Positions 2,466 through 13,262 of a stretch of 58,220 nt of DNA are shown in pieces. Below the pieces are notes generated by a model. It saw only the letters and a list, made by a program, of their open reading frames with translations. It was not told the origin of the DNA and did not search any database. The stretch comes from Acidobacteriaceae bacterium (GTDB lineage: Bacteria; Acidobacteriota; Terriglobia; Bryobacterales; Bryobacteraceae). Positions within the stretch are counted from its first letter, which is position 1. Each line of letters opens with the position of its first letter. The DNA lies in the NCBI GenBank assembly GCA_019245255.1, contig JAFARV010000676.1, positions 1-58,220 on the forward strand, given 5' to 3'. Both the position numbers and the translations under genes were made by a program.

Positions 2466-3233
2466 TTACCGCGCAATGCTAACCGCAACGCGGAACATCT
2501 GCCCTGCAAACTCCTCGTACACCGAGGGGAAGAGCATCAGAAGCGCCGAGATGGCCGCCAGGCCGGCCAGGATCTTCAGCGGCATCGTCAGGTGCAGCAA
2601 GTGCAGTTGCGCATTGAAACGGCCCAAAAGCGCGAGCGTCAGATCCACCATCAGCATCAGGCCGACAACGGGCAATGCGAGCCGCAATCCTACAGCAAAC
2701 AGCGAACCGGCAGCGTGCGTAATCACAGCGCCCCAACGTGGATCGAGCAGCAACTGCCCTGGGGGCTGCTTTTCCAGGCTTTCCGCGAATAATCGAATGA
2801 TGTAGCGGTGGAATCCGAGTGTGACGAATAACAGCGCTGAGACGGTTTGCGCAATGGCGCTGAGAACCGGGGCATCGGCTTGTGACTCCGGATCGACGGT
2901 GGAGGCGAAAGAGAATCCGGCCTGTAGACCGCAGATTTGTCCAAAGATCAATGCCGCGTCAGCGAGGAAGCCGACAAGCAGGCCAATGCACAAACCGAAC
3001 GTGGCTTCAATTGCAACCCACCCGGCGTATTCCATCGCAGTGATGGTGGCCGGAACCGTGGGCCATACGGGAAACAGCGTAAACGTAAGCCCCAGAATCA
3101 GAACAACGCGAATGGGCTCAGGGGCGCTGCGAATGCCCGGGAGAGGCACAAACACGACGGCCCCACCGATGCGGGCCAGAACCAAAAGAAAGCTGTAGAT
3201 CAGGCCGATCGAGAACGAGATCTCACCGTGCAT
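2466..3233 (-). CDS. fliR: flagellar export apparatus protein FliR
   Basis: 255-aa polytopic membrane ORF between fliQ and flhB, in the conserved fliPQR-flhB order. Confidence 0.9.
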   Translation of the reverse strand: MHGEISFSIGLIYSFLLVLARIGGAVVFVPLPGIRSAPEPIRVVLILGLTFTLFPVWPTVPATITAMEYAGWVAIEATFGLCIGLLVGFLADAALIFGQICGLQAGFSFASTVDPESQADAPVLSAIAQTVSALLFVTLGFHRYIIRLFAESLEKQPPGQLLLDPRWGAVITHAAGSLFAVGLRLALPVVGLMLMVDLTLALLGRFNAQLHLLHLTMPLKILAGLAAISALLMLFPSVYEEFAGQMFRVAVSIAR

Positions 3234-3492
3234 ACCGGCTCAGGTTGCCGAGAATCGAGGTCGCGTAGGTCATGGCCTTTTGCAGCACCCAGGGCATGCT
3301 GATGGTCGCTACGATGAAGAACACGGCCAGCCGCGGCACCGTGCTGAACGCCGCGTCCTGTATCGACGTAACGATCTGCACCAGGCTGATCACAATACCC
3401 GTTACGAATCCGGCAATCAGGAACGGCGCGCTGAGCCAGAACATCATCATCATGGCCTCGCGCACCAGTTGAACGGCGTACTCCGGGGTCAT
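3223..3492 (-). CDS. fliQ: flagellar export apparatus protein FliQ
   Basis: 89-aa two-TM ORF overlapping fliP and fliR. Typical size and position. Confidence 0.9.
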   Translation of the reverse strand: MTPEYAVQLVREAMMMMFWLSAPFLIAGFVTGIVISLVQIVTSIQDAAFSTVPRLAVFFIVATISMPWVLQKAMTYATSILGNLSRYAR

Positions 3493-4229
3493 GCGTAGAG
3501 GCCTTTCATTAAGGACCCGATCACCAGATCCCAGCCGTCGACTAACACAAACAGCAGAATTTTGAACGGCGCAGAAAGCATCACCGGCGGCAACTGCATC
3601 ATGCCCATAGATACAGTCAGCGATGCCACCACCACGTCAATGACCATGAAGGGCAGAAAGAGCACTGTTCCGATCTGAAAGGAAGCTTTCAACTCCGAAA
3701 GAATGTAAGCGGGAATCAGAACCTTCATGTCGAGGTCCTGCGCGGTGCGCGGCTGCGGCGCGTGCGAGATGTTGACAAAGAGCTGAATATCTTTTTCGCG
3801 GGCGAATTTCAGCAGGAAATGACGCAGCGGCTCCTCACCTTTGGTGATCGCTTCGTCCATGGTGATTTTGCCCTGATCGAATGGCTGCCACGCGTTCGCA
3901 TACATGTCTTTGGCAACCGGCTGCATGACCAGGACGGATAGGAACAGTGCGAGTCCGATGAGCACCTGGTTGGAAGGAGCAGTTTGGGTGCCAAGCGCCT
4001 GCCGCAAGAAGTGCAGCACTATCGAGATCCGCAGGAACGGGGTGACGCACATCACCGCTGCAGGCAGCAAAGTAAGCAGCGTGAGCAGAATGATGATCTG
4101 CATGGGCGCGCTGATAGTGGGGCCATTCGGCCCGGAAGACAGACTCGCGCCCAGGAGCGGTCCGGCGTTCCCGGCTGCGAAGGCGTGCCCTGCCCCGGCG
4201 AGAGGTAACAGAACTAACAGGCGTTTCAT
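3489..4229 (-). CDS. fliP: flagellar export apparatus protein FliP
   Basis: Signal peptide MKRLLVLLPLAGAG followed by FliP-typical TM core (ILLTLLTLLPAAVM, FLLPFMVIDVVVASLTVSMGMMQLPP). ATG at 4229 forms an ATGA overlap with the fliO stop. Confidence 0.95.
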   Translation of the reverse strand: MKRLLVLLPLAGAGHAFAAGNAGPLLGASLSSGPNGPTISAPMQIIILLTLLTLLPAAVMCVTPFLRISIVLHFLRQALGTQTAPSNQVLIGLALFLSVLVMQPVAKDMYANAWQPFDQGKITMDEAITKGEEPLRHFLLKFAREKDIQLFVNISHAPQPRTAQDLDMKVLIPAYILSELKASFQIGTVLFLPFMVIDVVVASLTVSMGMMQLPPVMLSAPFKILLFVLVDGWDLVIGSLMKGLYA

Positions 4230-4676: not shown

Positions 4677-5213
4677 ATGAGCACGGGAGCCGTCCTCATG
4701 ACCGTCGATGAATTCTTGCGCCTGCCGGAACCACAGACTGGGCACTACGAACTGCATCACGGGGACGTGGTTCTCATCGCACCGCCTAAGTGGGGTCACG
4801 AAGAAATTCAGGAGCGCGTGAGAGAACTCCTGAAGCGCACGATTGGAGACCGTGGAAGGGTCAGGGTCGAGATGGCGTTCCGCCCGGCACCTGAATACGA
4901 AGTGTGGAGGGCAGATGTTGGAGTCGTACGAAAAGAACGGGCCGATGCCACCCCGCCCGATACGTATTTGCAAGGAGCGCCGGATCTGGTCGTAGAGGTT
5001 TTATCCCCCAGCAACACAGCACAAGAGATCAACGACAAAATGGCCGTATGTCTCGACAACGGTTGTTCCAGCTTCTGGGTGGCCGACGACAACCTTAAAG
5101 AGGTGAAGGTCACCGAGGGCGATATCACGAGACGCTACACGGGCACGGCGACGATTGCGAGCGATTTGCTCGGCGGAAGTATCAGAGTCGACGACATCTT
5201 CCAGGGTTCGTGA
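4677..5213 (+). CDS. Uma2-family endonuclease, copy 2
   Basis: 178 aa. MTVDEFLRLPE and APDLVVEVLSPSN motifs. Confidence 0.8.
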   Translation: MSTGAVLMTVDEFLRLPEPQTGHYELHHGDVVLIAPPKWGHEEIQERVRELLKRTIGDRGRVRVEMAFRPAPEYEVWRADVGVVRKERADATPPDTYLQGAPDLVVEVLSPSNTAQEINDKMAVCLDNGCSSFWVADDNLKEVKVTEGDITRRYTGTATIASDLLGGSIRVDDIFQGS

Positions 5214-5231: not shown

Positions 5232-5963
5232 TTAGGCGATAATTCCTGCGACTTTGAGAGAAGCTTCGGGGTCGGGTCCGGCGGCCTGTGCCGCTTTTGA
5301 GGGAACGAAGCCAGCGGTTGTGTTAACCGAGGGCAAGAGTGTCGACGGTGACGCCGATTTGCCAATCGGCCGCAGGTTGCCTTCGGCCAACCCGCCCCAC
5401 ATCTGTGAGGTCTCGGGGTGTGCGGCACTCAAAATTGTAGGAACGAAGCCACGAGCTTTCTGAACCTCCCGCAGGGTTTTTAAAGCTTTATGGAAGCCGC
5501 GCTCGGCGCTGGTCATGAAGCGCTGGATGGCGGAGGCATGCGCGATCATGAAGTTACCGTCCGACATCAACGCTGCTTCCACGCGGCGGAACCGCTTCAG
5601 TCTCCAATAGTGTTCGGCCATTTCGTTGACCAGGATTTCTTCGGTTGTGTTGCCGGGTTGGTGTTCGGCGATGAGATCGGCCTTGAGTGAGTCGAGTTCC
5701 GCCGGGTCTTCGCCTGGGATGACCAGTTCTTTGGAATATAGGCCGTGCTTGAAGCTGTTACGGCTGGAGGCGGCTTTTCCTTCCTCCGTACGGGGACCAG
5801 TGCTCAGGTGGGCATTGGCGCGGTTAGCTTGGAGGCGAGCGGGAGAGATGGCGGACGCTCCAATCGCTTCGCTCATGGCTCCGATTGAGCTGCTCGTTTC
5901 TTTGCGGAGATCTTTGAGGGCTTGGCGTTCGGCCGCGCGGCGCTGCTGGCGTGAGAGTGACAT
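5232..5963 (-). CDS. hypothetical protein (conserved N-terminal NRANAxxSTGPRTxEGK motif)
   Basis: ORF trimmed to the ATG at 5963 (MSLSRQQRRAAE). The longer track ORF would overlap the divergent Uma2 gene. Sequence reads as protein-like and is not Arg/Pro-rich. Confidence 0.55.
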   Translation of the reverse strand: MSLSRQQRRAAERQALKDLRKETSSSIGAMSEAIGASAISPARLQANRANAHLSTGPRTEEGKAASSRNSFKHGLYSKELVIPGEDPAELDSLKADLIAEHQPGNTTEEILVNEMAEHYWRLKRFRRVEAALMSDGNFMIAHASAIQRFMTSAERGFHKALKTLREVQKARGFVPTILSAAHPETSQMWGGLAEGNLRPIGKSASPSTLLPSVNTTAGFVPSKAAQAAGPDPEASLKVAGIIA

Positions 5964-6043
5964 ATTGGGAGTTCGCTTTCCTCCGCGTTGTCGCACGGGG
6001 GTGTTCGGGCGGCAGTGGATTTTCGAGGGAAGTGGTTGATGCG

Positions 6044-6622
6044 ATGGGAGAAGAAAATTTCGGGGTTGGCGTGACTCTTGAGCAGTACCTGGAGCAAGAA
6101 GTCCATTCGCCGTACAAGCACGAATTCGTCGACGGCGAAGTGTTTGCAATGGCCGGTGGCAGCGCCAATCATTCGCTGATCGCCACAAATATAATCACGG
6201 CGTTGAACATTGCGCTTGACGGCTGCCCGGATCACATTTGCCGCGTTTACAACAGCGATATGCGGCTTGGCGTGCCCGCCGCGGCGCTCTATACATACCC
6301 CGACGTGCAGGTGGTCTGCGGCGACCCGGAGTTTGGTCCGCACGAGACACTGCTAAATCCCCAACTGATTGTGGAGGTCCTCTCCGAGAGCACCAAGAAC
6401 TTTGACCTCGGCGGAAAATTCGAAGCGTACCGGAGTATGCGTTCGCTCAAAGAGTATCTGGCGATCTATCAAGACCGGCGGCGTGTCGTACGGCATGTGG
6501 CATTGCCGGACGCTAGCTGGCAAGTGATCGAGCATGCCGAGGGGGATTTCCCCATTCGAATCGCGTGCGGCATTCGCCTGTCGTTCGATGCGATCTATCG
6601 CAATGTATCCCTAAACGCCTAA
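6044..6622 (+). CDS. Uma2-family endonuclease, copy 3
   Basis: Trimmed to the ATG at 6044 (MGEENFGVGVTLEQYLE). Core NPQLIVEVLSESTKNFDLGGK. Confidence 0.75.
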   Translation: MGEENFGVGVTLEQYLEQEVHSPYKHEFVDGEVFAMAGGSANHSLIATNIITALNIALDGCPDHICRVYNSDMRLGVPAAALYTYPDVQVVCGDPEFGPHETLLNPQLIVEVLSESTKNFDLGGKFEAYRSMRSLKEYLAIYQDRRRVVRHVALPDASWQVIEHAEGDFPIRIACGIRLSFDAIYRNVSLNA

Positions 6623-6636
6623 CGCCCGCGGCCGTC

Positions 6637-7266
6637 CTATGGCCCTACATACTTCTGGTCAAGGCTGCAGCTATGGGAATTGAGCGTGATGGACACCTTG
6701 GTGTCCAGCATCGATTCTACAGACTTCGCACACAGAACTTTCATGCCGGAGATCACCGCAAGAACGTATGTCCCGGGATCCAGCCCTGTCATATCAAACG
6801 TGCCTTCTTTTGAGACTATGGCGTCCATGGCGACTGGACCTGTCGTGATTGGCATAGCCCTCACCCACAGGTCCCCTGAACGAAGCGCTCCCTGCACGGA
6901 ACCAGTAAGCCTGTTTACGCCAGGTGGATCGCCTCCCGGTAAATACAGGAACACATGTACGGCACGGGAGGCGGTATAGACGGGCACGTCGGCATTCGCA
7001 TGCTGAAATCCAGGAGCATGAACTGTTAGCGTGTAGCGTCCAAACGGGACGTCGGCGCACACGTATCGGCGAAGTCGTGTGAAGGCGCAGCTCTTGAATA
7101 TGGGGCCGTTCCTCAGAGTCACCTGTGCAGCGGTTACTTCGTCCATCCCGAAAGTCTCGACATATACGCTGACTGTTCCGGATGGTTCTTCGGCGAGGGC
7201 CGGGACGGCCAGCAGCATGATCGATGCAGCCGCGGCTATCCTCGAAGCTTGTGTCCGCATCATCAT
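6637..7266 (-). CDS. secreted two-domain beta-sandwich (CarboxypepD_reg-like) protein; candidate immunity protein for toxin tip 3
   Basis: Signal peptide MMMRTQASRIAAAASIMLLAVPALA. Motifs GRYTLTVHAPG and DPGTYVLAVIS. ATGA overlap with the HExxH ORF upstream. Paralog of 7703..8425. Confidence 0.6.
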   Translation of the reverse strand: MMMRTQASRIAAAASIMLLAVPALAEEPSGTVSVYVETFGMDEVTAAQVTLRNGPIFKSCAFTRLRRYVCADVPFGRYTLTVHAPGFQHANADVPVYTASRAVHVFLYLPGGDPPGVNRLTGSVQGALRSGDLWVRAMPITTGPVAMDAIVSKEGTFDMTGLDPGTYVLAVISGMKVLCAKSVESMLDTKVSITLNSHSCSLDQKYVGP

Positions 7267-7700
7267 TTATTACCCGGGCCGCTCATGCAATTGTTTAGCA
7301 GCCACATGGTGATGTTGTCCGTGTTCTTCGCGTCTTTCGTCAACCCTAACGCGACCTGGATTGCTTCGTCATCAACTCCATAGACTTCGTGAATGAGTTC
7401 ATGCATGGCCATCGCTTCCATATACTGCGGATTGCCCAGTTGGGCTTGATTCATACGGTCGCCCGGCGAGGTAAATGGTACCGCCTCCCCACGGCGTCCA
7501 TGCCTCCAAACCGCGGTTAGGCGGAAAGGCAAACCACTGACCGACTGTAGTGTTCTTTCGTTTGGTTAGCCCGTCGACCTGTGCTTTCAACCCATTTGCG
7601 AATGTGCCGCCCGCCTGTGCGATTGTTTGATTTGCCGGGTTCGGATTGTAGCGGTCTCCGCCGAAGAGACCCAACAAGGCCACGAGCTTCTTGTCTTTCC
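7263..7700 (-). pseudogene. orphan rhs-type toxin tip 3 (HExxH), frameshifted
   Basis: Frame a reads ...GGDRYNPNPANQTIAQ...WGGGTIYLAG. Frame b continues GDRMNQAQLGNPQYMEAMAMHELIHEVYG...NCMSG. The shift lies in a ccgggc run near 7470. The RYNPNPAN segment matches the rhs core at 10181-10204. Confidence 0.5.
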
Positions 7701-7702
7701 TT

Positions 7703-8425
7703 TCAGCGTCTCCCGGCTGCGTCTTCAATTGCACGCCCGACCGTTTTTCTTTCAGCTTGCATTTCCGCATACCACCCACGCTGCTTCCGATCCCGCCGGT
7801 CGCTTTCCTCGACGAGGTGGGCAAAATGGTCAAGTTCAAACGTGCAGGTGGCCGGCCGGAAGGTCCACTTACGCGTGAACTCGACAAAGTCGATTTGGTG
7901 CGAACAGACATAGCCATTTGTGGACATAACGGCTACTACGTAGCTGCCTGGGTCGGGATCGACAATGGACGCTTCACGGGCGCCATTTGCGAAAACGTCG
8001 GTGTATATCTCGCCGTTGTATAGTCCCATCAGACGAGTCCACCATACGTGGCTATCTGCCGGCTGAGACGCCAATGTCACGACAAGGCTGGACTTAACGT
8101 GGTCCGCAACCAGGAGCCGATCGGTCAAAGTAAGTACCTCAAATTGCCCGCTATGTTGAAGTCGAACGGTCTTGTAAATCTCACTGTGGCCACATTTGAC
8201 TCTGACATCGTACTCTCCCAAAGGTATTCCGTTTCCGCTGAGCCCGTGAAATCGCTCGGAGTAGTGACCTGGCGTGTTTTCCTTGCCAACACTCTGAAAT
8301 TTCTCAAGCTGGCACCCATCGACGGGGAGTCCGAAAGGCCCGACAGTCAGTAAAGTCACCTCCGCGGCTGAACACGGAAGCAGTACAGCCGCAACCGCCC
8401 ACAACCAATACTTCTGTTTAACCAT
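7703..8425 (-). CDS. secreted two-domain beta-sandwich protein; candidate immunity protein for toxin tip 2
   Basis: Signal peptide MVKQKYWLWAVAAVLLPCSAA. Motifs GEYDVRVKCG and DPGSYVVAVMS. Starts 30 nt downstream of the HExxH tip. Paralog of 6637..7266. Confidence 0.6.
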   Translation of the reverse strand: MVKQKYWLWAVAAVLLPCSAAEVTLLTVGPFGLPVDGCQLEKFQSVGKENTPGHYSERFHGLSGNGIPLGEYDVRVKCGHSEIYKTVRLQHSGQFEVLTLTDRLLVADHVKSSLVVTLASQPADSHVWWTRLMGLYNGEIYTDVFANGAREASIVDPDPGSYVVAVMSTNGYVCSHQIDFVEFTRKWTFRPATCTFELDHFAHLVEESDRRDRKQRGWYAEMQAERKTVGRAIEDAAGRR

Positions 8426-8455
8426 GGTCTAGTTCCCGAGCCTATTGTGGTGGCT

Positions 8456-9273
8456 TTACTCCTGGAAGCAATCCTGTGCGAGTTTCTCAGAGATATTCGT
8501 TGTATCGTCGGCGTTTTCCGCGATTTTGAGTTCGTGTTGTATATGGGTGTCTGTGGCATCCCAATGGGCCAGGTGCACTAATTCATGCAGCATTGTTCCC
8601 AGCATCTCCGAATAGTTAGTTTGCCAGAAATTCGCCATATTAAAGACGATTGCATGTGACGGATCGTCGGCGGTGAAATCGGCGTTTTGGTTGAAGAACC
8701 TACGCACGACTGGGCTGACAATAGCTCGAAGGTCAACCAAGTCCGTCCCTCCTTTGCCCCGATCGTTTCCGGGGAGACTTCTAAATTTGCTAGCACTCAC
8801 ATCGAGTGCGCTGAGATCCTTGGCGCAAGGGCTGTTTTTCACGGGATTGAAGGATTGAAGCTGCTGGTTTGCGAGCACGGCCCACTTGGCGTCGTGCACG
8901 TGGGTGGCGAACGGTGCAGGCTCATGTGTACTACCATCGATCCGGTGATTAAATGAGTATTCCGAGTTGTCGATCCAGGCTTGTAGGACACCTGGAATGA
9001 TATTGAAAAAAGGCGCCGACAAGCCAAGGTAGTAGAGAGTACCAAATTCGACACTTCAGCTAAAGCTCAGGCCCGTGCCATCGCTATAGGGCGCCGAGGA
9101 GAAGAAAAAATCGCGCCCGGTTGAGTCTATATTGCTGACAGGATCGCTTCCTGCATACCCATATCTATTCCAGCTCTGCGGGGCACTCAGCCTTGCGCTT
9201 CCCGCATACGGATCCGGTGTGATGCTTGTCAGCCGATTCAAACCGGTTCCGGAGGGCGCGTGTAGCGCGATTT
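8456..9273 (-). pseudogene. orphan rhs C-terminal cassette 2: core-end motif plus HExxH toxin tip, split by an in-frame TGA
   Basis: RYTRPPEPVLNRLTSITPDPYAGS...PQSWNRYGYAGSDPVSNIDSTG (rhs core end), then TGA at 9056-9058 in the same frame, then a 188-aa tip ending MLHELVHLAHWD...NISEKLAQDCFQE. Confidence 0.6.
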
Positions 9274-9944
9274 TTATCGGGGTACTGCACCCGGGTATCG
9301 GCGCAAGAATGCGGCCTTAGCCGATTCGGTCCATGTCCATTGTAACGATTCATCGTTAGTCAGCTTGCCGTCTAGGCCATATTCATTGCGAATGTGACTC
9401 GCGACGAGCGAGTCCATCTCCGCAAACGGGAAGAAACGCCTGTTTCCAATGTCATACGCGATCCTTATTTCAGGCGTCCCCGAGGCGAAGATGGCAACAT
9501 TTCTTTCGCTTGAGCTCCATACGACGATTGCGAAATTAAGAAAGACGTCGGCCCTGCACTCATACAGTATCCGCTCCGGATGTTGCCTGGATTAATCGCA
9601 ACGTATGCTGCGCTAGCGGCGACCTTCCCTCCGGTTATAACACTCGTAAAGCCCATCGGAAACTGGGCCGGTGTTAAAAGTTGAAGGGCCCCCCTCAACT
9701 GTTGATTAGCAGAACTCTGGCCTTCCAAGTGGTCCGCGACCGTCTCGACGTAGTTAGCTAAAGCTTGGCAGTCAGTCTCCTGCCCCGATTTGACGAGCCT
9801 AATTAAGTTGTCTCGCAAAATAGTCCTCTGTTGCGGTGTGAGTGGTAGAGGGTCTCTTGGAGCTGGGGGCTGGTGCGCCGCCCGGGGCACCAGATGGAAC
9901 GAGGAGTACAGCACAATCGAAATAGGACGATGTCGTGACTCCAC
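9274..9944 (-). other. unresolved tip/immunity region downstream of the rhs core end
   Basis: ORF 9465..9944 and a start-less protein-like frame (ILYECRADVFLNFAIVVWSS...AKAAFLRRY, stop at 9274) overlap by about 125 nt. At least one frameshift is implied and the function is unknown. Confidence 0.3.
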
Positions 9945-11515
9945 CCGCTGTGACCGATCCCCAACAGGTCGAAATGATTGATGGGATCACCACCCGAACA
10001 TATATACCGGTTCCAAGTTGCTGGGTCACCCGGATTTATCTTCGACGTTGGTGTCGCCTGATATGGATCCTGGGTCATGAAGCGAACAATCCCAGAGCTG
10101 TAATACCGCTGATAAGCATAGTCCAGTCCCGTTGCCGAATCCCGCGTGTAAGTCGCGAACTTTTCCTGATCATTCGAGGGATTAGCCGGATTCGGGTTGT
10201 AGCGGTTTTTCCCTTTAGGGGAAGTACTTGGCTCGGGATTGCAAGCGGTCTTCCGGCGTGAGCAGGCGGCCGGCGAACCAGATATCGTGGTTGTGCAACC
10301 GACTGTTACCGTTCCGAATTCTGGATCGAGTAAACAGCCAGTTTCTTGCCATCAATCCCGTAGAAGTAGAGCTGCTCATTCGAGTAAGTCTGCGTTGAGG
10401 CGTTGTAAGTCCCTTGATAGATCCGCTGGTTTGACGAATCGTAGCCATACAGCGCCTGATTGCCACCTGGCGCAGGCACGGCAACAGTCATCCGATTCTC
10501 GATGTCGTAGCTGTACGCAGCGGCGAAGGAGCCCGTTCCGAGAGCCGTCAGGTTGCCGTTGTTGTCGTACTGCGCTCCGTTGGCGTTCAGGCGGTTAGTT
10601 GTCGGATCGGTACTCAGCGCGGTATTGCTGGGTGCGGCTGCGCCGATTTTCTGGATCAGATTTCCGAAACCGTCATAGCTGAACTGCTGACTCCAGTTAC
10701 CGGTCGGGTCGCCGGTGCCGTTTGCCTGAATCAACCGACTGAGCGAGTCGTACGAATAGGTAATGGTTTCCCCGCTCACCACGTCCGTTTGCGACAGAAT
10801 GCGCCCGTTGTTCTGCGTCGCCGAGTAGTTGTACTTGAAGTGAACATTGGCGCCCGACACCAACTCGGTCATCTGCAGATTCGCATTGTAGGAACGCGTC
10901 TCGGTGAAGGCTGCCGCGTTAAGTTGGAGCATCTGATTTGCCGGACCGTAACTGACCCCGCTCACCAGCGTTTGACTGTTCGGACCGTTCATGGTGTTCA
11001 GCCGGTACATGGCATCGTATCCATAAGTGTATTGCGGGCCGGCCGTGGTCACCGCCCCGTTCTGCCACTGCGCAAACGGGTACTGCACGCCGGTGACGGC
11101 GCCGGTGCTGTCGTAGGCGTAGTCGGCTTCGAGATTGGGCGAGTACGAGCCCAACGCCGGGCCCGAAACATTCAGCCGCTTGGCCGTAACGCCGCCCGCG
11201 GCATGATAGCTGTAGAGTTCCGCAAACTGCAGGCTGTGCGGGCCTGAATACTGCACCTCAGACACGCGTCCCGCGGTGTTCGATGAGAACCCGCCGTTCG
11301 TGCCGTCGTAGGTGAGCGTGGTCCGCTGCGTCACATCCTCATTGAATGTGCCGTTCACCAGTTTTCCGCGCGAGATCTGGATCAGCCGGCCATAGATGTC
11401 ATAGCTGTATTGAACCTGCTGCGACTTCGCATCGGTCTTAGTCGCGAGCGTACCGTCGCTGTTATAGGTGTAGCTGGTGGCGATGTTTCCGGCGTAGCTG
11501 CGCTGCTTACCAGAT
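9945..11515 (-). pseudogene. RHS/YD-repeat core fragment, 5'-truncated with at least two frameshifts
   Basis: YD repeats (YSYDIYGRL, YGYDAMYRL, YSYDSLSRL, FSYDGFGNL, YSYDIENRM). Frame changes near 10310 and 10215. Core end is ...QEKFATYTRDSATGLDYAYQRYYSSGIVRFMTQDPY...WNRYICSGGDPINHFDLLG. No N-terminal domain is present. Confidence 0.75.
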
Positions 11516-11761
11516 GACCCGAAGACCGCGGTATTTCTTGAACTCGCGGTCCGTCGCCACGCGCGGAACATCCTCCTTAAGCGCTGTTGCAATGAGCAGC
11601 CGGTCGAATGGGTCGTTGTGATGCCGTGGAAGCCCGAATGTGCGATATGCGTGAAAGGCTGTTAAGGGAACGATCGTCAGATGCAGATCCCGGCGGCGAC
11701 ATACAATGCGGTCGTGTCCAGGAGAATGCGCCGCATCAATAACGGCCAGCGATAAAGTCAT
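11507..11761 (-). pseudogene. vapC: PIN-domain VapC remnant (C-terminal two-thirds only)
   Basis: 84 aa ending HHNDPFDRLLIATALKEDVPRVATDREFKKY. The N-terminal acidic catalytic residues are missing, and a stop lies 5 codons upstream of the Met. Confidence 0.6.
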
Positions 11762-11990
11762 CGACTTCTTGGTCCGTCATGGGCCGGGTCGCTTCACGAA
11801 ATTGCTCCGGCGTCATGTGCACAATACCCCGCAACGTGCCGAACTTCGGCGCGGGGCGCTCTTCGTTATTCGCAGGGACAATGGTAATGACTGGCTGTCC
11901 GCGGCGGCAAATCGCTACGCGCTCACCCTTCTCGACCAGTGCAATGAGCTGGGTGAGCTTATTTTTTGCTTCCGCCACACTGACCTTCAC
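11736..11990 (-). CDS. Phd/YefM-family antitoxin
   Basis: GTG start at 11990 gives (M)KVSVAEAKNKLTQLIALVEKGERVAICRRGQPV. The long N-terminal extension in the track ORF looks non-coding. Confidence 0.7.
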   Translation of the reverse strand: MKVSVAEAKNKLTQLIALVEKGERVAICRRGQPVITIVPANNEERPAPKFGTLRGIVHMTPEQFREATRPMTDQEVDDFIAGRY

Positions 11991-12152
11991 AACCTCATCA
12001 TAGCTATGTAAATGGCTATCAAGTGGCGCCTTCAATGACAACGGCCGCCTGTGGCCGCGAGTGCGTGAAGAGCGCCCCGAACTTCGCTGAACCGATTCGG
12101 GGCACCAGCAGGTAGCACGCCGGGTTGTGCTTACGACGGATAATCGTCTTGC

Positions 12153-13262
12153 ATGTTTAAGAAGCTCTGGGACGCAGCTCTGAAGAGAATGCACAGGTGG
12201 GCGAGCTGTGAACTTGCGGGCCTCAATCGGTTGCCTCCCACGCTTGTTAACGAAAACCAACCTGCGAACACTATCGCGGGTGAACCCTCGGATTATGAGC
12301 AGCGGATTGAGCAGGAAAAGGCTAGTTATAGAGACTGTCTGAATGTGCATGACCTCCCAAGGATCGCGGCGTATTGGCATGAGCGCCACCTTCTGCCTAA
12401 GTTTCAACACTTCGGCATTACTCATCCGGGCGAAATCTTTGAAGTGGAAATATCGAAACGATGCGCCTCAAACGCAAATGTTAATCAGGTCCTGAGCATC
12501 GGATCGGGCAATTGCGATCTCGAGGTAAAGCTCGCAGCATTTCTGAAGAGTCACGGACATTCGAACTTTTTAATCGAGTGTCTGGATCTAAATCCGGCTA
12601 TGCTGGCGCGTGGTGCGGTTTTAGCTGGAGAGTACAACGTCTCTGAGCACATTCGACTTACAGAATGTGACTTCAACGATTGGCAGCCCGAACAGGAATA
12701 CGATGTCATTGTTGCGAGCCAATCTCTTCACCATGTCGTGAAATTGGAAGCTCTACTCGATGGAGCGAAGCGTTCTCTGAAGCACGATGGCTATTTCTTG
12801 GTTTCGGACATGATAGGCCGTAATGGTCATATGCGCTGGCCGGAGGCTCTGGAGATCGTCCACGAATTTTGGCGGCAACTCCCCGGCGGCTACAGATATA
12901 ATCACCAGCTTCGCCGTTATGAGGATCTCTTTGAGAATTGGGATTGCTCACAGGAGGGTTTCGAAGGAATACGCTCGCAGGATATACTTCCTCTTTTGAT
13001 CGAGCGCTTTCAATTTGAAATGTTTCTTGCGTTCGGAAATGTGATCGATCCTTTTGTTGACCGCTCATTCGGCCACAATTTCCGGCCGGAGACGGACTGG
13101 GACCGGAATTTTATCGATCGCGTTAACGAGCGAGACGAAGCGGAGTTGACGTCGGGTACAATCAAGCCGACCCATCTTGTCGCGGTTATGCGCCGGTCGG
13201 TTGTAGGGCCGATGAGGTACTTACCTCCGATGACGCCTGAGTTCGCACTGCGACGCACCTGA
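12153..13262 (+). CDS. class I SAM-dependent methyltransferase
   Basis: 369 aa. Motif I-like VLSIGSGNCDLE and post-I/II-like DVIVASQSLHHV. Confidence 0.75.
   Translation: MFKKLWDAALKRMHRWASCELAGLNRLPPTLVNENQPANTIAGEPSDYEQRIEQEKASYRDCLNVHDLPRIAAYWHERHLLPKFQHFGITHPGEIFEVEISKRCASNANVNQVLSIGSGNCDLEVKLAAFLKSHGHSNFLIECLDLNPAMLARGAVLAGEYNVSEHIRLTECDFNDWQPEQEYDVIVASQSLHHVVKLEALLDGAKRSLKHDGYFLVSDMIGRNGHMRWPEALEIVHEFWRQLPGGYRYNHQLRRYEDLFENWDCSQEGFEGIRSQDILPLLIERFQFEMFLAFGNVIDPFVDRSFGHNFRPETDWDRNFIDRVNERDEAELTSGTIKPTHLVAVMRRSVVGPMRYLPPMTPEFALRRT

Follow-up and report, generated by a model that had tools for sequence, protein, structure and literature searches.

Amid the debris of an rhs gene on the minus strand of a 58,220-nucleotide (nt) stretch of DNA from an Acidobacteriaceae bacterium (contig JAFARV010000676.1, assembly GCA_019245255.1; the whole of this stretch is referred to as the window), two small HExxH-containing reading frames (tips 2 and 3) are each followed directly by a gene for a beta-sandwich protein with a signal-like N-terminus (paralogs A and B), which raises the question of what these two gene pairs once did and what remains of their function. 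The answer that we consider fairly probable is that the region from 6.6 to 11.7 kb is the tail of a decayed Rhs locus with two orphan cassettes, each composed of an envelope-acting zinc metallopeptidase toxin (the tip) and a periplasmic, inhibitor-type immunity protein (the partner). In the present genome, tip 2, tip 3 and the neighboring rhs gene are pseudogenes, and both partner open reading frames (ORFs) are open. The layout of the two cassettes, as derived from a minus-strand three-frame translation of positions 6500–11700 and from the raw sequence, is as follows:

9316–9059, minus strand: displaced rhs core-end stub 5′ of tip 2 (partial TIGR03696 match, E 2.9e-4)
9058–9056, minus strand: in-frame TGA between the stub and tip 2, opposite a Trp in the metagenome contig L008
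9055–8459 (stop codon at 8458–8456), minus strand: tip 2, as a stop-to-stop frame (leave-out hidden Markov model (HMM), AlphaFold2 (AF2) model and three-frame translation)
8425–7703, minus strand: paralog A, 240 amino acids (aa), intact ORF, located 30 nt past the tip 2 stop
7700–7468, minus strand: 5′ part of the tip 3 cassette, in frame 7932–7402 (direct repeat D2; relative P0071)
7467–7263 (within ORF 7532–7263), minus strand: 3′ part of tip 3, past a frameshift near 7465 (leave-out HMM E 6.6e-12; 63-aa ORF = P0022)
7266–6637, minus strand: paralog B, 209 aa, intact ORF, whose ATG overlaps the TGA of tip 3 as ATGA

The sequences, the coordinates, the 30-nt gap and the ATGA overlap that had been quoted in a first-pass annotation, made from the DNA letters, were all found in the window. 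The tip 2 frame, with ...NISEKLAQDCFQE as its C-terminal end, consists of a linker (NPFYN…HRxDG-like) and a 139-aa zincin-like domain (approximately 8875–8459), with HELVH at 8587–8573, a proposed third-ligand Asp at 8551–8549, and a Cys pair situated in SPCAKD and QDCF. For tip 3, the annotation had delimited ORF 7532–7263, which ends in ...NITMWLLNNCMSGPGNK (also given as …NTDNITMWLLNNC…). This ORF does contain the HExxH motif (HELIH, located at 7403–7389), but the cassette truly begins near 7700 in another frame, where its 5′ part carries the N-terminal half of the tip (…EAWTPWGGGTIYL).

The proposal that both tips belong to one HExxH family was borne out by BLASTP (30% identity over 60 aa, E 9e-6) and by an HMM (Z = 1e6) from whose alignment tips 2 and 3 and the sequences closest to them had been left out, and which recovered tip 2 at E 6.8e-38 and tip 3 at E 6.6e-12. 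The two downstream proteins are indeed paralogous as well (24% identity over 71 aa, BLASTP E 1e-6), with a partner HMM built without either window paralog (again at Z = 1e6) scoring paralog B at E 1.6e-10 and paralog A at E 4.3e-10. Judged from these sequence comparisons, the similarity of the tips to each other, and of the paralogs to each other, is far beyond chance.

When the tip profile was run exhaustively (HMMER) against 1.84 billion cluster representatives, the family proved to be rare, with 98 representatives at E ≤ 1e-3, 39 of which at E ≤ 1e-10, and the match reaches the C-terminus in every member that carries the HExxH region. Word-indexed protein searches with the tip and partner families returned 4, 3 and 11 matches only, and were very insensitive beside the 98 of the exhaustive search. 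The occurrences of the tip family seen to date come from soil and peat metagenomes and from one Terriglobia (Acidobacteriota) genome, and its signature consists of C..DL..lGl, (i)xYN..nFWQ, lGTllHExxH, D..(i/l)Q..LG (i.e., HExxH-x7-D) and T.NIS.KL..DCF. HExxH is present in 96 of the 97 aligned sequences, as is the Asp at +8 after the second His, and of the 72 sequences that span both Cys positions, 64 carry the pair, with one Cys at each end of the domain. The motifs that had been noted as common to tips 2 and 3 (HExxH, D..IQ..L, T.NI and a terminal Cys) turned out to be exactly the conserved columns of the family.

By their sequence context, the tips are Rhs C-terminal cassettes. TIGR03696 is found upstream of the tip domain in 36 of the 39 long members (at least approximately 240 aa), with the strict PxxxxDPxGL motif in 17, and one family member, P0058, is an Rhs protein of 1502 aa that is close to full length and has repeats resembling the rhs fragment of the window. 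The earlier description of both tips as displaced rhs cassettes holds for tip 2, the stub of which matches TIGR03696 and carries a degenerate cleavage motif (NIDSTGR vs. DPxGL in relatives). Tip 3 lacks an RHS core end and retains only a 27-nt stub (RYNPNPAN, 7629–7655) with 89% identity to the rhs core at 10180–10206 (direct repeat D2). In the tip 2 clade only (window positions 8875–9055, the contigs L001 and L008, and P0069), the rhs cleavage site is separated from the zincin domain by a conserved segment of approximately 60 aa (NPFYN.SP.DL..Y.DNS.Y.F.HR.DG); P0069 has this segment without the HExxH part, and the segment may be a pre-toxin linker.

The pairing of tip and partner was surveyed in 13 tip loci reached through the tip search, i.e., the two window cassettes and loci L001 to L011. 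L001 is an ENA contig that is syntenic with tip 2/paralog A, L002 is a Terriglobia metagenome-assembled genome (the sole match among 185,579 species genomes), L003–L005 came from the metagenome scan, and L006–L011 from exact-protein look-ups; the scan of genomes and metagenomes was performed with a 10-sequence tip alignment and yielded one genome locus and three metagenome loci. The exact window protein P0001 had no match in the contig index. The co-occurrence of tip and partner, which the first-pass annotation had put forward for checking, recurs in 12 of these 13 loci, with a member of the partner family located immediately 3′ of the tip (HMM E 1e-12 to 1e-109) and separated from it by an ATGA-type overlap or a gap of 1–40 nt. 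More specifically, in L001, L003, L004, L008, L009 and L010 the gene that comes next after the tip 2-type domain is an orthologue of paralog A, and the partner family is also present behind the tip 3-like P0071 in L007 (HMM E 2.2e-16). The identity matrices of tip core and partner are strongly correlated (Pearson r = 0.86, Mantel p of about 2e-4), and the partner is always more diverged than the tip (e.g., 72% identity between tips vs. 45% between partners, or 43% vs. 24%). Chance adjacency of the tips to generic beta-sandwich genes was considered as well, and was set aside on account of the specificity of the partner HMM, the leave-out scores and the co-divergence.

The exception among the 13 is L006 (4362–7216), in which a tip of a distant HExxHNxTG clade (P0105, with HELIHNVTGK…DDCFK) starts inside the rhs core. 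This locus adjoins a phage-type integrase and a primase, and its downstream gene product displays three transmembrane-like segments and no beta-sandwich; this could represent a different type of immunity, carried by a mobile element. L002 holds additional rhs fragments (2534–4066 and 10139–10846), whose C-terminal regions are of other, unrelated kinds and are followed by small ORFs, and reads (from the unscanned sequence) as an orphan array like that of the window, beside an IS66-like transposase ORF.

What the first-pass annotation had overlooked is that both tips and the neighboring rhs gene are pseudogenes, and that only the two partner genes look functional here. The stub and tip 2 are collinear with a continuous ORF of L008 (60% identity over 267 aa), and the TGA of the window aligns with a Trp of L008 (LSFS*SVEF vs. 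STFTWGVSF, i.e., TGG-to-TGA; the window has DSTGR where L008 has DPAGL). Since the collinear L008 ORF has a Trp at this position, the stub and tip 2 must once have formed a single reading frame, with the TGA being a nonsense mutation. Likewise, the relative P0071 runs uninterrupted across the tip 3 region (WSAWTPYDGGTIYID...MHELIH), where the window is split over two frames, with EAWTPWGGGTIYL in the first and ...MHELIH in the second. Because P0071 is continuous across it, the tip 3 frameshift could be placed near 7465, 20 codons upstream of HExxH. A sequencing error behind these disruptions is unlikely, since the flanking flhB-, fliR-, fliQ- and fliP-like ORFs are open and the stop arose by a base substitution at a Trp codon rather than by an indel.

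On the toxin side, damage is thus found throughout: frameshifts have hit the rhs gene (which is also truncated), a further tip following it (tip 1) and tip 3, and a nonsense codon severs tip 2. Moreover, four tips (window tips 2 and 3, and those of L001 and L008) are broken at differing sites, and the partner genes are intact in all four cases. The tip 2-type toxins of the metagenome contigs L001 (3400–4471) and L008 (2–1007) are frameshifted at different positions, and assembly (indel) errors are possible there. A partner that stays intact beside a decayed toxin shows the behavior expected of an immunity gene, and not of an accessory to a dead toxin. The simplest reading is that of an old acquired rhs island in which the immunity genes alone remain useful. 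With neither toxin gene functional, the adjacent rhs gene truncated and both partner genes intact, the locus has probably been reduced to protecting its host from relatives that continue to deploy these toxins.

The partners themselves form a family with signal-like N-termini. All 11 partners whose N-terminus lies on the contig possess, by heuristic reading, a hydrophobic stretch and an AxA-like site, preceded by a basic residue in 10 of them (the exception being L007); in paralog A the stretch reads MVKQKYWLWAVAAVLLPCSAA, followed by EV, and in paralog B …MLLAVPALA, followed by EEP. The cleavable signal peptides that had been claimed for both paralogs are thus matched by hydrophobic N-termini with AxA-like sites, their cleavability being a heuristic call. 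The two CarboxypepD_reg-like halves that had been assigned to both proteins could be retrieved in paralog B (PF13620, E 2.4e-9, 37.8 bits vs. a cut-off of 32.3, in two stretches), but not in paralog A, for which there was no Pfam match. Overall, PF13620 scored above its gathering threshold in two of seven partners (paralog B and one more), and matches of the partner in the PDB were weak (the EMC7 beta-sandwich, E 0.12).

Two types of partner could be distinguished. The long type (229–256 aa), to which paralog A belongs, shows four conserved Cys and a charged tail at its C-terminus, and goes with tip 2-like domains. The short type (about 204–220 aa), to which paralog B belongs, goes with tip 3-like and other clades. 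The partner HMM gave no other match in the 58-kb window or in the examined loci, and passed over an L002 ORF that, by eye and unscanned, resembles a generic beta-sandwich of the CarboxypepD_reg type.

With regard to the tip domain itself, no Pfam or NCBIfam model matched the family at threshold, and the profile searches against Tox-MPTase-type and other zincin families that had been called for reached no family cut-off, returning weak matches only. When 48 diverse members were submitted to hmmscan against Pfam (E ≤ 1), the sub-threshold matches were mostly to zincins (SprT-like in 9, Aspzincin_M35 in 5, DUF7844 in 5, WLM in 4, DUF2201_N in 4, Peptidase_M85 in 3 and M91 in 1). A sequence profile search of the PDB with the tip family pointed weakly to Wss1p (E 0.028) and selecase (E 0.036), with the selecase alignment spanning the strand-then-active-site-helix segment (tiyyN....lGtllHEllH).

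The 139-aa domain of tip 2 was modeled with AF2 from a 48-sequence alignment at a predicted local distance difference test (pLDDT) score of 93.5 and a predicted template modeling (pTM) score of 0.88; this model superseded one of the whole 199-aa tip 2 from a 5-sequence alignment, which was unusable (pLDDT 47). The predicted structure displays short helices, three strands, and a long helix (88–103) bearing HExxH, with a further helix beginning at the invariant Asp and a C-terminal helix finishing at the conserved Cys. Its best Foldseek matches were nearly all zincins, i.e., IrrE (E 0.015, probability 0.92), selecase, abylysin, jannalysin, deuterolysin (with the top TM-score of 0.44), Wss1, SPRTN and lethal factor, and the viral library yielded SprT-like, IrrE-like and M48 models. 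On this modeling, the tip would tentatively be a minimal zincin-like domain without a close described relative. The two histidines of the HExxH motif are proposed to bind the metal together with the invariant Asp at +8 (a putative third ligand), and the Cys pair at the domain ends probably forms a disulfide.

A number of described classes were tried for the tip and set aside. Profile matches did not place it in the Tox-MPTase1–5, HopH1 or Peptidase_M91 toxin families: no Tox-MPTase model appeared among the 48 members even at E ≤ 1, and Peptidase_M91 matched just one of them (E 0.056). The PDB profile search (E ≤ 10) did not bring up the VgrG2b C-terminal domain, nor was it one of the 50 Foldseek PDB matches shown. 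The best scores for WLM (E 0.0015) and SprT-like (E 0.011) both fell short of their cut-offs. Aspzincin (M35) matches remained sub-threshold in 5 of the 48 (best E 0.0012), and the context of the Asp is (s/t)Dxx(i/l)Q rather than GTxDxxYG. Finally, the third-ligand arrangement of Wss1 (HExxHxxxxxH) does not apply, as its third His falls opposite a non-conserved position and the conserved residue is an Asp.

Put together, the toxin would be the C-terminal Rhs domain of approximately 140 aa, most likely a minimal zincin-type zinc metallopeptidase, that the Rhs protein would carry into a neighboring cell. Its site of action there would be extracytoplasmic (periplasm or envelope), with a protein or peptide as the substrate that it cuts. 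The downstream gene would in turn encode a Sec-exported protein of two beta-sandwich (CarboxypepD_reg-like) halves, which would bind its cognate toxin in the periplasm and block it, thus protecting kin. We read these pairs as toxin–immunity cassettes because a variable Rhs C-terminal domain is combined with a tightly linked, faster-evolving small gene that is kept intact beside a broken toxin, and the partner is most likely the immunity protein of its tip. Action of the toxin in the envelope or periplasm is suggested by the exported partner, and the idea is strengthened by the Cys pair of the toxin, the four Cys of the long partners and the membrane-protein partner in L006. A narrower version, in which a disulfide-stapled minimal Asp-zincin cuts an envelope target, the inhibitor represents a new class built of two beta-sandwiches (transthyretin/CarboxypepD_reg-like), and the orphan copies are kept as a standing defense, has in our estimation about an even chance of being correct.

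Alternatively, the beta-sandwich proteins might have nothing to do with immunity, and be secreted Rhs accessory factors (adhesin, chaperone/adaptor or co-effector) or unrelated envelope proteins that lie beside the tips by chance. CarboxypepD_reg-like domains are generic and very common in Acidobacteriota, the only Pfam match of any partner (in two of the seven) is to this generic fold, and the loci were surveyed from the tip side, the partner-side search being insensitive. Nevertheless, such a role appears unlikely given the immediate 3′ adjacency of the partner in 12 of 13 loci and about six lineages (often with an ATGA overlap), its co-divergence with the tip at a faster pace, its intactness where the toxin has decayed, and the failure of the partner HMM to pick up the generic-looking (unscanned) CarboxypepD_reg-type ORF of L002. 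A more radical possibility is that nothing functional is left and that the 6.6–11.7 kb region is an inert rhs graveyard with partner ORFs that are intact by chance. The truncated and frameshifted rhs gene, the disruption of tips 1, 2 and 3 alike, the G+C content slightly under that of the flanks, and the toxin–antitoxin and Uma2 genes all round are in keeping with such a graveyard. We deem it improbable, since the 240- and 209-aa partner ORFs are open, with conserved residues and signal-like N-termini, where the toxin-side ORFs are all broken, and since the same asymmetry of broken toxin and intact partner is seen in L001 and L008.

A different objection concerns the compartment: the HExxH domain could be a Wss1/SprT-like protease acting in the cytoplasm, or a non-proteolytic metal-binding toxin, with the exported neighbor being irrelevant. 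The best sequence likenesses of the tip are in fact to WLM/Wss1 and SprT-like proteins (Wss1p at E 0.028, WLM at E 0.0015, SprT-like in 9 of 48), and the small Rhs-linked Tox-MPTases have been described as distantly Wss1-like (PMC3482391). None of these matches attains a family cut-off, however, and the third His of Wss1 faces a non-conserved position, with an Asp being conserved instead. Moreover, the near-invariant Cys pair suits an oxidizing compartment, and no cytoplasmic candidate immunity gene is located between the tip and the exported partner, making this a very unlikely account.

The toxin–immunity reading, which we prefer, has to be held against a number of observations that weigh against it. 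All loci of the pairing survey were found via the tip search, and because several of them are close relatives, the 13 loci correspond to about six independent, divergent lineages only; the co-divergence could in turn merely mirror the co-inheritance of neighboring genes. The signal peptide calls are heuristic readings of hydrophobic N-termini, and the N-terminal Cys of the pair is missing in tip 3 and its relative P0071. In Foldseek, nothing was matched by the tip 2 model at E ≤ 1e-3, with TM-scores of just 0.34–0.44, so that the zincin fold assignment rests mainly on the motif and on the consistency of weak matches. A word-indexed search starting from the partner, which is of low sensitivity, recovered only its own input sequences; since this type of search is so insensitive, the near-absence of partner homologues is no evidence of their rarity. 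Within the 58-kb window, finally, there is no full-length rhs gene and no recognized secretion system besides the flagellar genes.

The remainder of the rhs debris is located 5′ of the tip 2 stub, and comprises:

11661–10309, minus strand: 5′-truncated rhs YD-repeat fragment, start missing (Pfam RHS_repeat E 1.5e-19; TIGR01643 YD repeat)
10351–9806, minus strand: rhs core end (…GGDPINHFDLLG) past the frameshift, leading into tip 1 (TIGR03696 Rhs_assc_core E 6.2e-10, 39.4 bits vs. a cut-off of 32.5)

The frame of the YD-repeat fragment stops at 10309, after which the gene resumes in a different frame, and its 5′ side adjoins a truncated PIN gene. Tip 1 represents a third cassette that comes straight after the rhs core end (region 10351–9468); it is frameshifted, with its remainder in the third frame (9986–9468), and no Pfam or NCBIfam match was found for it. 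A 105-codon stop-to-stop frame after tip 1 (9591–9277, minus strand) could be the tip 1 immunity gene. The G+C content amounts to 0.52–0.54 at 8–10.5 kb, slightly below that of the flanks (0.56–0.62).

The rhs island is set between flagellar operons and has Uma2, Doc/Phd and PIN/Phd genes as neighbors. Three paralogs of the Uma2 family (putative restriction endonucleases) lie on the plus strand (142–711, 4677–5213 and 5951–6622), scattered round the flagellar export genes and beside the rhs island. Two toxin–antitoxin remnants were noted on the minus strand, i.e., a Fic/Doc gene with a small upstream ORF (774–1369), and a PIN gene cut to its last approximately 55 profile positions together with a Phd/YefM antitoxin (11507–12161). 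The truncated PIN gene sits exactly at the point where the rhs gene loses its 5′ end. Further away, the window encodes a giant flagellin of 1256 aa (26473–22703, minus strand), whose Flagellin_N and Flagellin_C ends are normal and which has an insert of approximately 1000 aa.

The claim that this pairing is an uncatalogued one stood up, as no Pfam or NCBIfam model was reached at threshold, no Tox-MPTase match was obtained, and our literature searches yielded no description of the pairing, of a CarboxypepD_reg-type immunity protein, or of relevant acidobacterial Rhs toxins. The family is new and uncatalogued but of a familiar kind, i.e., an Rhs metallopeptidase toxin with exported immunity, and will not surprise the specialist, because a large C-terminal diversity is expected of polymorphic toxins. 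With it, the Rhs repertoire would gain an HExxH toxin family that is tied to a specific family of exported, putative immunity proteins; judging by its Cys pair and the exported partner, the toxin would act in the envelope. To our knowledge, experimentally characterized envelope-acting metallopeptidase toxins are few, VgrG2b being one of them, and we are aware of hardly any work on interbacterial antagonism in Terriglobia (Acidobacteriota), a soil lineage. If the proposed role is true, the partner would constitute a new protein inhibitor of zincins. The locus also illustrates how immunity genes may outlive their toxins, in this case as genes that would otherwise be labeled as generic "carboxypeptidase regulatory-like".

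In their arrangement, the window cassettes resemble orphan rhs-CT/immunity modules (CT, C-terminal region), in which short rhs core stubs, each followed by a divergent C-terminal region and its own downstream gene, are arrayed behind an rhs gene. They differ in that the orphan toxins of the window are inactive and its main rhs gene is both truncated and frameshifted, which makes the array not redeployable from the locus as it stands.

Among toxins, Zhang et al. 2012 (PMC3482391) reported Tox-MPTase1–5 as five small Wss1-like zincin families linked to Rhs, and their table lists none of the five with an immunity protein. The present tips share with these a small HExxH domain at the extreme C-terminus of RHS-repeat proteins and a weak similarity to Wss1/WLM. 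In contrast, the motifs listed in that table do not include the present signature (C..DL, NFWQ, HExxH-x7-D..Q..LG, T.NIS.KL..DCF), and the present family has a defined exported partner. The best structural neighbors are minimal zincins, i.e., selecase/minigluzincins (4qhf, 4jiu), IrrE/COG2856 (3dti), deuterolysin (1eb6) and Wss1/SPRTN (5ln5, 6mdx), and the tip family has an Asp shortly past HExxH as the aspzincins do. However, these matches are weak (Foldseek E ≥ 0.015, TM-scores of 0.34–0.44), neither the GTxDxxYG of the aspzincins nor the Glu helix of the gluzincins is seen in the tip, and these neighbors do not include any Rhs toxin that is paired with an immunity protein. T6EC12, from a 2026 preprint, is another new HExxH effector, but one described as a two-domain cargo protein that is also toxic to yeast.

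The best model of how the present pair would operate is VgrG2b with PA0261, which combine an HExxH toxin with a downstream exported immunity protein. The C-terminal domain of VgrG2b, from the H2 type VI secretion system (T6SS) of Pseudomonas aeruginosa, carries HExxH and exerts its Glu-dependent toxicity in the periplasm only (Wood et al. 2019; PMC6899460). PA0261, encoded by the gene immediately downstream of it, has a signal peptide and conserved Cys, needs DsbA/disulfide formation, and binds the toxin (PMC6899460). The two systems differ in that no sequence or fold match between the toxins emerged from the PDB profile search or the 50 Foldseek matches shown, and in their carrier, which is VgrG/T6SS there and Rhs here. 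According to its description, a small ORF encodes PA0261; the present partner is a two-domain beta-sandwich protein of 200–256 aa.

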